A program made the position numbers and the translations under genes. The notes beneath the pieces are model-generated. The model ran no database searches. It was not told where the DNA came from and saw only the letters and a program-made list of their open reading frames with translations. Of a stretch of 64,000 bases of DNA, positions 59,400 through 64,000 are shown piece by piece; positions within the stretch are counted from its first letter, which is position 1; each line of letters begins with the position of its first letter. The stretch comes from Bordetella parapertussis (GTDB lineage Bacteria > Pseudomonadota > Gammaproteobacteria > Burkholderiales > SG8-41): the NCBI GenBank assembly GCA_945861275.1, contig CAMATZ010000002.1, forward strand, positions 10,300 to 74,299. The letters run 5' to 3'.

Positions 59400-62300
59400 T
59401 TGGCAGACGCACAGCAACGCCAGGGCGACGAATTATTCATCGTCGATAACAGCGATTCCGACTGGAAAGTAAGGGACTATCTTCGCGAATGGTCGGGGAT
59501 ATCCCGTGCTTTCGATATCGCTACCGGGTACTTTGAAATTGGCGCATTGCTGGCCTTGGACGGGCAGTGGCAGCAATTGGAAAAGCTTCGAATCCTCATG
59601 GGTGACGAGGTATCGAAGCGTACTAAAAAGGCGCTGCTGGCGGGCATCCAAAACGTCAATCAAATTCTCGACGCGAGTCTTGAGAAGGAGAAAGAAAAAA
59701 ACGACTTCCTCACCGGTGTGCCTGCAATCGTTGAAGCGATTCGGGATCGCAAGATCGAATGCCGGGTTTACACGAAGGAAAAGTTTCACGCCAAGGCTTA
59801 CATTACCCACTCCAAACTAGCGGTCGTCGGCTCCGCAGCACTGGTTGGCTCCAGCAATCTTACCTATCCGGGACTCACCCAAAACGTCGAACTTAATGTT
59901 CAATTGCGCCGTGAAGTGCCGGTATTGCAGGAATGGTTCGAGCGACACTGGAATGAGGCGGAAGACGTTTCCGACGAGATCCTCAAAGTGATCGAGCGGC
60001 ACACACGGGATTACCTTCCGTTCGAGATTTACGCCAAGGCACTTCAAGAGTACTTCCGCAACCACGAAATCACTGTGGGCGAGTGGGAGTTACTTCATTC
60101 GAAAATGTTTTCTGTGCTCGACCAGTACCAAAAAGAGGGCTATCAGGCGCTAATCAAGATCGCCAACACTTATCACGGTGCATTCTTGTGCGATGGCGTC
60201 GGCCTTGGCAAAACGTTTGTCGGCATGATGGTGATCGAGCGTCTCATCATGCACGACCGCAAGCGCGTCATGCTGCTGGTGCCCAAAGCCGCACGCAAAC
60301 CTGTATGGGAAGCGGCTCTCAAGCGGTATCTGCCGCATCTCGCGGGCGACTTCAGCAACCTCGTTATTTTTAATCATACCGATCTTCAGCGTGAGGGCGA
60401 ATACCCTGAACGATTCGAGCGAATGAGAGAAATGGCGGACGTGATTCTGGTCGATGAGGCGCATCATTTCCGCAACCCCGGTATCAAGGGCATAACGGGC
60501 AAGGCCCCGTCCCGATATCGGAAATTCTTCGAATTGGCACAGGGCAAGCAGTTGTTTCTGCTCACCGCTACGCCGATCAACAACAAGCTCATCGATCTTC
60601 AACACCTGATCGAACTCTTTTCACAGCGCCAGGCGGACTATTTCAAATCGGCGCCGCTCGGTATTCATTCCTTGCCCGGCCACTTCCGCCGGATGGAAAA
60701 GGAGTTGGATCGGTTGGTTTCCGGCGCCGCCCCGGGCGCACAACAACAACTGGAAATTAGCGAAATCGAGGCCGAGCGAGTACTAACACAGGACGCTTTA
60801 TTCCAGGCGCTGGTTGTTCAGCGGAGTCGTGCCTACGTTACTGCGAGCCAGAAGCAGCACGGGGGAAGCGAAGCGCTCTTTCCGCAGCGGGAGGATCCTC
60901 GCGTCGCGGCCTACTCAATCAAAAAAACCTATGGGCGCTTACTGACCATGATGGAGGAGGCATTCTCAAAGAGTAAGCCGTTGTTCTCGCTACCGATGTA
61001 CTACCCTTTGGCTTACTTCAAGGGTGACGATAAGAATGTGGATCCGCTAATCGAAAATCGCCAGAAGCAAGTCGTGGGCTTGATTCGCATTCTGTTTCTG
61101 AAGCGTTTCGAGAGCTCCGCCAAAGCATTTGAAACGTCATGCGAGATGCTATTGCTCAAGCTGCTGACCTTCATGACGAAGAATTCCAAATCGGCTTCGG
61201 AACTTCGTGTACTGGAACGCTGGAAGCTGCAGCACGCAGATTTGATCGGTTATGTACAAAAGCACCAGCTCGAGTTGTTCGGCGAGGAGGACGAAGAGGC
61301 CGACGAGGACATCATCACCGAAGAAATGCTGGACGAAGTGGAGGAGCTTTCCCGTGAACAATACAGGGTTGAAGAGATATTGCAGGAAACGGTGCTCGAC
61401 CTCGATCAGGTCGCGCAGTTTCTGGAAGAGTTGCGCAAATTCAAGCCCTCGCATGACGACAAGCTGCGCGCATTGATTTCGTTATTGAAAAACGACCCTG
61501 TGCTCAAAAAGCACAAAGTTTTGATATTCTCAGAATTCATGTCCACCGCCCGCTATTTGCGGCATCAGTTGAGCGACGCGGGGATAGGTGGCATTGACCA
61601 GATAGACAGTGCTACCAAGCGCGACCGCGGCGAAGTGATCAAGCAGTTCGCGCCTTACTATAACGATTCGTCGAGCGCGCAACTGGCTGCTGCAGGGCTA
61701 ACCGAAACAACGGTGTTGATATCGACGGATGTGCTGTCAGAAGGCCTTAACCTGCAAGATGCGACCCGCCTCATCAATTACGATCTGCATTGGAACCCGG
61801 TCAGGCTGATGCAACGCATCGGTCGCGTCGACCGGCGCATGAACCCGGAGATCGAGGCCAGGTTGATTGCGGATCACCCTGACGAGAAGAAACTTCGCGG
61901 CAAAGTCGTGTATTGGAACTTCCTGCCCCCTGAGGAACTGGATAATCTGCTCGCGCTTTACGGCAAGGTATCGCATAAAACGTTGCGCATCTCGAAAACG
62001 TTTGGCATAGAAGGTAAAAAGCTCCTCAAGCCGGATGATGATTACGAAGCCATGAAGGACTTTAATCATTCCTATGAGGGCGCCACAACGGCCGATGAGG
62101 CCATGCACCTCGAATACCAGCGCTTGCTCCAGGAGCACCCTGACCTTAAGGCACGGCTCGACGTACTGCCGGGCCGGGTTTTTTCCGGCAAGGCGCATCC
62201 TGAAAAAGGCAAGCGGGCAGTATTTTTCTGTTATGCCTTGCCCGCGCAGGATCAAAGCATAGCCGACGAGGCTGCACTGGACGCTGGCCGTTGGACTATC

Positions 62301-62546
62301 GATTCGGGATACACGCGGTGGGTCTTATATGACTTTGAAACGAAGAAACTGATTGAGGACGCAACCCAGATTATCGAGTTTATCCGCAGCGGTCCGAATA
62401 CCCCGCGTGTGGTGGCGATTCCGCAACTGACGCTGGGCGAAATTCGAGGCGAGGTGGAGAAGCACTTAAGAAACACCTATCTCAGGCAAGTGCAGGCGCC
62501 GGTCGGCGTCAAACCTGTGTTGCGAGCGTGGATGGAATTGAACTGA
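59400..62546 (+). CDS. PLD/HKD-nuclease-domain plus SNF2-family helicase fusion protein (defence-associated helicase-related protein)
   Basis: 1048 aa. TTG start preceded by AAGGAAGAG. The N-terminus has an HKD-type motif, KFHAKAYITHSKLAVVGSAALVGSSNLT (aa about 128-155). It is followed by helicase motifs DGVGLGKTFVG (I), VDEAHHFRN (II), LLTATPINN (III) and HWNPVRLMQRIGRVDR (VI). Confidence 0.85.
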   Translation: MADAQQRQGDELFIVDNSDSDWKVRDYLREWSGISRAFDIATGYFEIGALLALDGQWQQLEKLRILMGDEVSKRTKKALLAGIQNVNQILDASLEKEKEKNDFLTGVPAIVEAIRDRKIECRVYTKEKFHAKAYITHSKLAVVGSAALVGSSNLTYPGLTQNVELNVQLRREVPVLQEWFERHWNEAEDVSDEILKVIERHTRDYLPFEIYAKALQEYFRNHEITVGEWELLHSKMFSVLDQYQKEGYQALIKIANTYHGAFLCDGVGLGKTFVGMMVIERLIMHDRKRVMLLVPKAARKPVWEAALKRYLPHLAGDFSNLVIFNHTDLQREGEYPERFERMREMADVILVDEAHHFRNPGIKGITGKAPSRYRKFFELAQGKQLFLLTATPINNKLIDLQHLIELFSQRQADYFKSAPLGIHSLPGHFRRMEKELDRLVSGAAPGAQQQLEISEIEAERVLTQDALFQALVVQRSRAYVTASQKQHGGSEALFPQREDPRVAAYSIKKTYGRLLTMMEEAFSKSKPLFSLPMYYPLAYFKGDDKNVDPLIENRQKQVVGLIRILFLKRFESSAKAFETSCEMLLLKLLTFMTKNSKSASELRVLERWKLQHADLIGYVQKHQLELFGEEDEEADEDIITEEMLDEVEELSREQYRVEEILQETVLDLDQVAQFLEELRKFKPSHDDKLRALISLLKNDPVLKKHKVLIFSEFMSTARYLRHQLSDAGIGGIDQIDSATKRDRGEVIKQFAPYYNDSSSAQLAAAGLTETTVLISTDVLSEGLNLQDATRLINYDLHWNPVRLMQRIGRVDRRMNPEIEARLIADHPDEKKLRGKVVYWNFLPPEELDNLLALYGKVSHKTLRISKTFGIEGKKLLKPDDDYEAMKDFNHSYEGATTADEAMHLEYQRLLQEHPDLKARLDVLPGRVFSGKAHPEKGKRAVFFCYALPAQDQSIADEAALDAGRWTIDSGYTRWVLYDFETKKLIEDATQIIEFIRSGPNTPRVVAIPQLTLGEIRGEVEKHLRNTYLRQVQAPVGVKPVLRAWMELN

Positions 62547-62558
62547 CAGGGGAAGCGT

Positions 62559-63092
62559 GTGACTGACGAGCAGCGCAAGCGTTTGCGCAACATCAAAACG
62601 TTTCACCAGCTCATTGCTTTCCTGCGTGATGAGTTGTGGTGGCCCATTGACCGGGGCGAAGACGAAGATGATCTGACATTCGATTGGTCCGACGACCTCG
62701 GGCTCGAAGCATCCGCGAAAGTAGGTATTAAGGAGATAAAGCAGCTCCGTCCGCTCGAGAGCGGCCAGCCCTGGGGCATCTTCTTCATCAACTTCGAAAA
62801 AAAGCGCCTGCCTATTGTTATCCTGCGCCGCATCCTGAATGCGCTGGTGGTCAAAAAGCGCGCCAGCGCCAACAAAGGCCAGCGTGCCGCGTGGCAGCAG
62901 CATGACCTGCTGTTCATCTCGGCCTACGGTGAGGACGACGAAGCGCGCCAGCTCACCTTTGCGCATTTCAGCGAACCAGCCAGCGAACTCGCAGATACCA
63001 AGCCCACCTTGCGCGTATTGGGCTGGGACGACGACGACACCAACCTCAAGCTGGACTACGTCGCCGACAAGCTCAAAGAAAAACTTACCTAG
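62559..63092 (+). CDS. N-terminal module of a large Eco57I/PglX-type DNA methyltransferase, terminated by an in-frame TAG (177-aa product)
   Basis: GTG start with RBS GGGGAAG, 12 nt after the helicase stop. MTDEQRKRLRNIKTFHQLIAFLRDELWWPI...QPWGIFFINFEKKRLPIVILRRIL...LFISAYGE matches my recollection of the N-terminus of full-length enzymes of this type. The same frame continues open after TAG 63090-63092. Confidence 0.6.
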   Translation: MTDEQRKRLRNIKTFHQLIAFLRDELWWPIDRGEDEDDLTFDWSDDLGLEASAKVGIKEIKQLRPLESGQPWGIFFINFEKKRLPIVILRRILNALVVKKRASANKGQRAAWQQHDLLFISAYGEDDEARQLTFAHFSEPASELADTKPTLRVLGWDDDDTNLKLDYVADKLKEKLT

Positions 63093-64000
63093 CCGGAGAA
63101 TACTGCTGACCTGAAAACCTGGCGCAAGCGCTGGTCTGACGCCTTCGAGTTCCGTCCTCGGCAGGTGATCAATACATCCGAAGAACTTGCACTGCGGCTC
63201 GCCGAACTGGCCAAGCGTATCCGTGGCCGTGTGCTGCTCGTGCTCAAGCACGAAAGCGAAAAGGGCGCGTTACGCAAGTTGATGAAGGGTTTCAGGACTG
63301 CGCTGATCCACGATCTTGACGCGGATCAGTTCGCCGACATGTATGCGCAGACGATCACTTATGGGCTTTTCTCGGCTGCGGTTTCCCGCACAGTGCCGGG
63401 CGCCGGGACTGCTGTGGTGCAGGAAAACGTGGCCGACATGGTCCCGGTTACCAATCCTTTCCTCAAGGAAATGCTCGAAACTTTCCTCAGGGCCGGTGGC
63501 CGCAAAGGTAAGCTGGATTTCGATGAGCTTGGCATTCAGGATGTCGTCGAACTGCTCAATGACACGAACACTCGCCTCGATGCCGTGCTGCGGGACTTCG
63601 GCAACAAGACCCGGCAGGAAGATCCCGTTATCCATTTCTACGAGCACTTCCTGGCTGTCTACGACAAGAAACTCAAGGTGCAGCGCGGCGTTTTCTATAC
63701 GCCGTTACCGGTCGTTTCCTACATCGTCCGCAGCGTGCATGAACTTCTGCAAACGGAGTTTGGCCTTGAGGACGGTCTTGCCTCAACCGTTACATGGGGC
63801 GAAATGGCGCTCGGATTCCCTCCCCCGCTTGCGGGGGAGGGCAAGGGTGGGGGTATCCGAATCCCCGATGGAACTGGCCCTGACGAACCTTTTGTGCAGA
63901 TTCTCGACATCGCCACCGGCACCGGCACGTTCTTCATCACAGTGATCGAGGTTATTTTCCAGCACCTCAAGGCAAAGTTCGCGAAAGGCGGCATCGCCGC
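63093..64000 (+). CDS. Eco57I/PglX-like N6-adenine DNA methyltransferase, central part (3' end outside window; 5' end separated from the previous ORF only by TAG)
   Basis: Stop-free frame from 63093 to the window end. DQFADMYAQTITYGLFSA, DPVIHFYEHFLAVYD, RGVFYTPLPVVSYIV and SAM motif I ILDIATGTGTFF are present. The first in-frame restart candidates are GTG 63165 and ATG 63282. Confidence 0.78.
63818..63854. repeat. REP hairpin core of the same family, in-frame inside the methyltransferase CDS
   Basis: CCCTCCCCCGCTTGCGGGGGAGGGCAAGGGTGGGGGT closely parallels CCCTCGCCCCGCTTGCGGGGAGAGGGTGGGGGT (reverse complement of 47752-47784) and 39291-39323. It translates as PPPLAGEGKGGG. Confidence 0.8.

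Follow-up and report, generated by a model that had tools for sequence, protein, structure and literature searches.

Why does a single amber codon interrupt a methyltransferase gene whose neighbour, the gene of a nuclease-helicase, is intact? The gene lies at the end of the window, by which we mean the whole stretch of DNA that was analysed (64,000 nucleotides). A 177-codon reading frame on the plus strand opens with GTG at position 62559 and is closed at 63092 by TAG (63090–63092), giving a product with the C-terminus ...LDYVADKLKEKLT. The codon context at the junction is ...aaa ctt acc TAG ccg gag aat..., and past the TAG the frame continues unchanged as PENTADLKTWRKRW..., open up to base 63998 at the window end. 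A preliminary description of this DNA had read the arrangement as a methyltransferase split by one in-frame amber codon and had offered three explanations: a nonsense mutation of recent date, an error in the sequence, or expression in two pieces through restart downstream. The split itself was described correctly, as the codon can be read directly and homology is continuous across it. As for its cause, the comparisons described below support the first explanation and make it quite likely that a genuine, recent nonsense mutation has inactivated the gene of the methyltransferase/specificity subunit, and probably with it the whole two-gene system.

The interrupted gene has two recognizable parts. 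The first is an N-terminal module of the methyltransferase subunit (62559–63089, plus strand; 177 codons with a GTG start), an alpha/beta domain that is conserved across the family and has conserved residues such as W28, P29, Q70-P-W-G73 and D116. Its start is preceded by a Shine-Dalgarno-like AGGGGAAG (62548–62555, plus strand), located within the 12-nt gap between the helicase stop and the methyltransferase start; the duplex of this element with the 16S 3′ end has an energy of −6.5 kcal/mol, one of the stronger energies obtained for the start codons tested in the window. The module had no match in Pfam, PADLOC or NCBIfam. Its AlphaFold model was of moderate quality (pLDDT 68.7), and comparison with PDB folds gave none that was significant (best E = 0.045, TM ~0.2), which leaves the idea of a degenerate MmeI-type nuclease domain unsupported. 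It is a reasonable guess that the module couples to the motor subunit. The second part is the rest of the reading frame (63093–64000, plus strand), which encodes a helical region and then the start of an N6-adenine methyltransferase domain, visible as the N-terminal edge of Pfam N6_Mtase, before the gene runs off the window. Intact homologues are about 1110–1370 aa long and carry N6_Mtase, Eco57I and Type_ISP_C.

Translated with Trp in place of the stop, the frame retrieved 1759 homologues, with 98–100% query coverage in most of the 120 matches listed. Because this is one continuous alignment to a single protein family on both sides, the TAG is no chance stop between unrelated open reading frames. 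A protein search with the downstream part gave no exact match; the matches listed had roughly the length of the query or exceeded it somewhat, so the shortness of the first matches is an artefact and not evidence of truncation.

The identity of the lost codon is clear from the family. In alignment A1, the stop column is Trp in all 26 aligned database proteins and the next residue is Pro in nearly all of them, which agrees with the Trp-Pro that the preliminary description had given for this junction of full-length enzymes. At the level of DNA, the same codon is TGG in 79 of 80 species-representative genome loci, TTC in the remaining one and a stop in none, so the comparison with full-length homologues that had been proposed as a check confirms the Trp codon. 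The closest DNA relative, L003 (88.7% identity), reads CTTACC TGG CCA where the window reads CTTACC TAG CCG. One G-to-A transition, from TGG (Trp178) to TAG, explains this difference, as had been suggested from the codon itself. We therefore annotate 63090–63092 (plus strand) as a premature amber codon that replaces the conserved Trp codon TGG at residue 178, on the evidence of the homologue alignment, the 80 loci, L003 and the two matching assemblies described below (L001 and L002). Scans of JGI metagenomes for the junction, both exact and degenerate at the codon level, gave no match and hence no TGG allele for the strain. Modelling of an intact homologue places the Trp in a loop between helix 164–174 and helix 181–192, which puts the stop at a predicted domain boundary between the N-terminal module and the next helix.

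The sequence around the codon has a further feature. The ancestral ACC TGG CC (window 63087–63094, now ACC TAG CC) contained CCTGG, a Dcm-type site, and deamination of 5-methylcytosine on the opposite strand would yield the change from TGG to TAG. The window has 128 CCWGG sites versus 182 expected, a mild under-representation. That the TAG originated in this way is speculation, and a cytosine methylase was not identified.

We considered whether the TAG could have arisen during sequencing or assembly, with TGG in the true genome. The two codons differ by one base substitution, and consensus errors are possible in metagenome-derived assemblies. Against this, two separate runs yielded assemblies that match the window at 100% identity without a mismatch, TAG included, over 9152 bases (L001, ERR3719144) and 5964 bases (L002, ERR5863107), and finding the identical sequence in two different runs makes a one-off sequencing error unlikely. 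The exact 177-aa product is also recorded in NCBI, ENA and Logan, on a 212-kb contig, and the junction is not within a homopolymer or other error-prone context. We give almost no credence to an artefact.

If the codon is real, it might still be decoded as sense. Of the 61 frames of at least 250 codons in the window, 15 are closed by TAG, and the other junctions in the window at which TAG separates two long ORFs of the same frame divide unrelated complete genes (GT2, a glycosyltransferase, from MBOAT; SGL from Meth_synt_2, which are gluconolactonase-like and methionine-synthase-like, respectively). Codon reassignment was rejected on the evidence of the window, in which TAG terminates these unrelated complete genes, and its use as the end of ordinary genes makes an efficient suppressor unlikely as well. 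There remains low-level read-through, by near-cognate decoding or by a suppressor tRNA encoded elsewhere, which would give some full-length enzyme and leave the system down-tuned rather than off. The downstream frame is intact, as this would require. In bacteria, UAG is considered a rather weak terminator when the next base is C, and the stop here precedes CCG. However, basal read-through is typically very low, another residue would usually stand in for the conserved Trp, and TAG closes ordinary genes of the window; no tRNA gene was found within the 64 kb, nor did any Rfam element match there. Taking both sides together, we regard partial read-through as distinctly improbable.

A different possibility is that the gene now works in two pieces. 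The restart codons that the preliminary description had named, GTG 63165 and ATG 63282, are both present and in frame. The first of them (63165–63167, plus strand), codon 203 of the gene and the first in-frame GTG after the stop, is where gene callers start the downstream open reading frame in L001 and L002. On this account, the 177-residue module and a restart product would both be made; they would either reassemble, or the restart product would methylate DNA uncoupled from the nuclease-motor, leaving restriction off and modification on. A stop in a predicted loop at a domain boundary suits such an arrangement, as does a downstream frame that is fully open and looks constrained. The initiation signals point the other way. 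Neither restart codon has a Shine-Dalgarno match before it, their energies (−2.5 kcal/mol for GTG 63165 and −3.9 kcal/mol for ATG 63282) compare poorly with the −6.5 kcal/mol of the true start at GTG 62559, and the nearer one is located 73 nt beyond the stop. A product starting at codon 203 would also miss W188, W192 and F196, all of which are invariant in alignment A1. No plus-strand promoter-like site was found from the start of the helicase gene to the end of the window.

The family offers no precedent for a gene divided here. In the 80 loci, and likewise in over 2000 database proteins, we found no natural split at this position, including none of the naturally split homologues with their own start and ribosome-binding site that would have counted against a nonsense mutation. 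A search with the 177-aa fragment returned solely contig-end fragments and frameshifted copies. Of the proteins that end immediately before the Trp, the only one that could be traced, P0286, is cut off by the end of its contig (P0251 was not traceable), and the remaining short database proteins that end near the junction either run past the Trp or carry out-of-frame tails. An evolved two-ORF methyltransferase was rejected because no homologue is split here and the restart codons lack a Shine-Dalgarno sequence. For the same reasons, expression of this copy in two pieces is not supported, and we consider it quite unlikely.

How unusual is a broken methyltransferase gene in this family? In the species-representative genomes, the gene is disrupted in about 14 of the approximately 68 loci where it is fully on the contig, or about one fifth, through frameshifts, insertions or single in-frame stops. 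The last of these are found in four loci, at residues 28 (L044), 42/43 (L016), 110 (L080) and 139 (L054), with the rest of the visible reading frame intact; one of the four is a TGA at the invariant Trp28. Because such disruption is common, the window case is an ordinary gene inactivation. It resembles ordinary nonsense-inactivated defence genes in having one premature stop at a conserved sense codon with the rest of the gene and its partner intact, and nothing distinguishes it from ordinary bacterial pseudogenes except the position of the stop at what is predicted to be a domain boundary.

The four loci and the window together have all five of their single in-frame stops within the first 178 of about 1140 residues, for which a uniform distribution of stops gives a post-hoc P of ~6e-4. 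This clustering is the remaining point in favour of expression in two pieces, although the events number only five and some derive from metagenome bins. It would also fit a reading in which an early stop acts as a switch and not as a null mutation: the N-terminal module would couple the methyltransferase to the PLD-SNF2 nuclease-motor, and weak re-initiation past the stop would leave a free DNA-marking methyltransferase, with restriction lost. If true, this reading would account for the N-terminal placement of all five in-frame stops across unrelated species. We think it very improbable.

Simple inactivation, which we favour, raises the question of when the mutation occurred. We found no further lesion in the 302 codons downstream of the TAG. 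The ratio dN/dS relative to L003 is 0.076 for codons 1–177 and 0.148 for codons 179–417, with similar values for more distant relatives. Of the 138 columns with at least 95% conservation, the window deviates in only 3 apart from the stop, compared with a family mean of 2.3 and a maximum of 13. Polarized amino-acid changes on the window and L003 branches number 5:2 downstream of the stop and 2:5 upstream; these are too few to show relaxed constraint, and there is no meaningful excess. The mutation is thus apparently recent in evolutionary terms, although an undecayed downstream part would fit continued function equally well; for this reason, we leave the rival explanations some probability. Separately, dS relative to L003 (window 62559–63809) is 0.63 in the N-terminal module and 0.27 in the part that follows, a more than two-fold contrast that hints at a mosaic or recombinant history of the gene.

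The neighbouring gene shows what has been left behind. The nuclease-motor subunit (59400–62546, plus strand; 1048 aa) has an N-terminal PLD/HKD nuclease followed by a SNF2/ResIII-type helicase, as identified by Pfam (PLDc_2 (PF13091), ResIII, SNF2-rel_dom and Helicase_C) and PADLOC, in which the best model is the candidate 'HKD+Snf2' (1.5e-54). It retains 278 of the 280 columns that are at least 95% conserved in its family, and the HAK motif is conserved, so the helicase-nuclease gene is intact, as first described. A PLD-SNF2 homologue is found upstream of the methyltransferase gene on the same strand in 78 of 80 related loci. From this recurrence, we conclude that the locus is a conserved two-gene module, by its sequence an ATP-dependent restriction-modification system and an uncharacterized relative of Type ISP; it would work like a Type ISP enzyme divided in two, with nuclease and motor on one subunit and methyltransferase and specificity on the other. 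A literature search found no description of a two-gene module of PLD-SNF2 and methyltransferase.

The upstream neighbours in the window are TctC-family, DUF3530 and DUF922 genes. The G+C content of the nuclease-helicase gene is 53% (window 59500–62500) versus approximately 60% in flanking chromosomal genes, and the module directly follows TctC-family and hydrolase genes; the low G+C content and this placement are consistent with horizontal acquisition. In many related loci, a gene encoding a DUF3800 protein of 260–313 aa is located directly 3′ of the methyltransferase gene and often overlaps its stop codon (L004, 13414–14238; L007, 9465–10340; L013, 7913–8824; L021, 11262–12203; L032, 13316–14191). 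The system may thus include the DUF3800 gene as its third component; in our locus, the equivalent region is located past the end of the window.

Among characterized systems, Type ISP (LlaGI and LlaBIII) is one of the closest. Its methyltransferase-specificity part is homologous, as intact homologues of our gene carry Type_ISP_C (1e-65) and resemble LlaBIII and LlaGI both in sequence (4e-24 and 2e-18, respectively) and in fold (Foldseek, ~1e-22), and it too has a helicase-type motor and a nuclease in the same system. In contrast to the single polypeptide of Type ISP with its Mrr-type (PD-(D/E)XK) nuclease, the PLD/HKD nuclease and SNF2-like motor here are on a separate 1048-aa protein, and the methyltransferase subunit begins with a module of its own (~177 aa), which has no detectable relative; the copy in the window is, moreover, broken. 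Type ISP proper was rejected because there are two polypeptides, the methyltransferase having its own Shine-Dalgarno sequence for the start at 62559, and because the nuclease is PLD and not Mrr. The gamma-class N6-adenine methyltransferase and Type ISP specificity domain are present in the intact L004 and L007; the window shows the first 302 residues after the stop, and a specificity domain would come after base 64000.

Enzymes of Type IIL/IIG, DrdV and MmeI, gave the best match to the methyltransferase-specificity part of the homologues (7lo5; 2e-31 by sequence and 6e-23 over 766 alignment columns by fold), and PADLOC places the methyltransferase protein in its REase_MTase_IIG models. DrdV/MmeI-type enzymes bring a PD-ExK nuclease at their own N-terminus and do not require a motor. 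In the present case, the N-terminal module has no significant fold match on its own, and a separate PLD-helicase gene is adjacent (upstream in 78 of 80 loci). A similar effector, a PLD-nuclease/SF2-helicase that relies on an N6-adenine methyltransferase for site recognition, is used by MANTIS (Gao_RL, BREX-related type 2; 10.64898/2026.09.23.753747). MANTIS comprises four genes, encoding the AAA+ ATPase MtsA, the DUF3870 protein MtsB, the methyltransferase MtsC and the PLD-helicase MtsD, and it was rejected because no AAA+ or DUF3870 gene is adjacent: the upstream genes are those for TctC, DUF3530 and DUF922, and those downstream in relatives are DUF3800 or variable. DISARM class 1 (DrmA, DrmB, DrmC, the SNF2 helicase DrmD, and DrmMI) was rejected in the absence of DrmA and DrmB from the neighbourhood; the only matches were partial ones to DrmD, at 128 bits versus a curated cut-off of 610. 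Assignments related to BREX were likewise rejected on gene content and sub-threshold scores.

A second irregularity of the methyltransferase reading frame is located further downstream. A G+C-rich palindromic stretch (63819–63854, plus strand), an in-frame insert relative to most homologues, encodes FPPPLAGEGKGGG in a variable loop; it is laid out as CCTCCCCCGC-TT-GCGGGGGAGG, followed by GCAAGGGTGGGGGT. It is found once in the window, and its hairpin has an energy of −30.2 kcal/mol (z = −1.45). The palindrome plays no part in the stop-codon event. Both the L001 and L002 assemblies end at window position 63846, within the palindrome, and these breaks may mean that it is repeated elsewhere in the genome. 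The loop in question, after the conserved TWGEM motif (window ~63800–63880), is an insertion hot spot throughout the family. Its base lengths are 18 or 27 aa, to which are added lineage-specific low-complexity inserts of 5–40 aa that resemble translated repeat elements; insertions were seen in nine loci (L008, L021, L026, L028, L038, L046, L051, L065 and L079) and three proteins (P0007, P0018 and P0045), and in P0045 a Y1 transposase domain (PF01797) is inserted at this loop with the frame open across it. Three disrupted copies of the gene (L011, L033 and L073) also break at the loop.

What would the nonsense mutation do to the system? With TGG (Trp178) turned into TAG by the G-to-A transition, translation would end after the 177-residue N-terminal module, which would be released alone. 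Little or no full-length protein would then be made, and both methylation and target recognition would be lost. The PLD-SNF2 nuclease-motor would be left without targeting, so that the whole system would probably be off and not toxic. This expectation depends on the location of the specificity domain, which we assume for the window copy from its intact homologues: because this domain is on the methyltransferase polypeptide, its loss should also disarm the nuclease and not leave it dangerous. Since targeting and methylation would be lost together, there is no paradox in finding the nuclease gene intact next to a methyltransferase gene that is broken. A parallel is found in MANTIS, with its PLD-helicase effector, in which knocking out the methyltransferase is non-toxic, which the authors attribute to loss of DNA recognition by the effector (bioRxiv 10.64898/2026.09.23.753747). 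By analogy, loss of the methyltransferase may be non-toxic here as well.

These results suggest that the locus belongs among the inactive defence systems, and that the reading frames at 62559–63092 and from 63165 should be annotated as one disrupted methyltransferase gene and not as two hypothetical proteins. The locus would be one more example of the rapid loss of restriction-modification genes. It also illustrates a possible point of design, in that a specificity domain placed on the methyltransferase subunit would allow this subunit to be lost without self-restriction. Finally, the family in which PLD-SNF2 is paired with a methyltransferase that also carries an N-terminal module and a Type ISP specificity domain is present in many phyla, is apparently uncharacterized and may deserve study.
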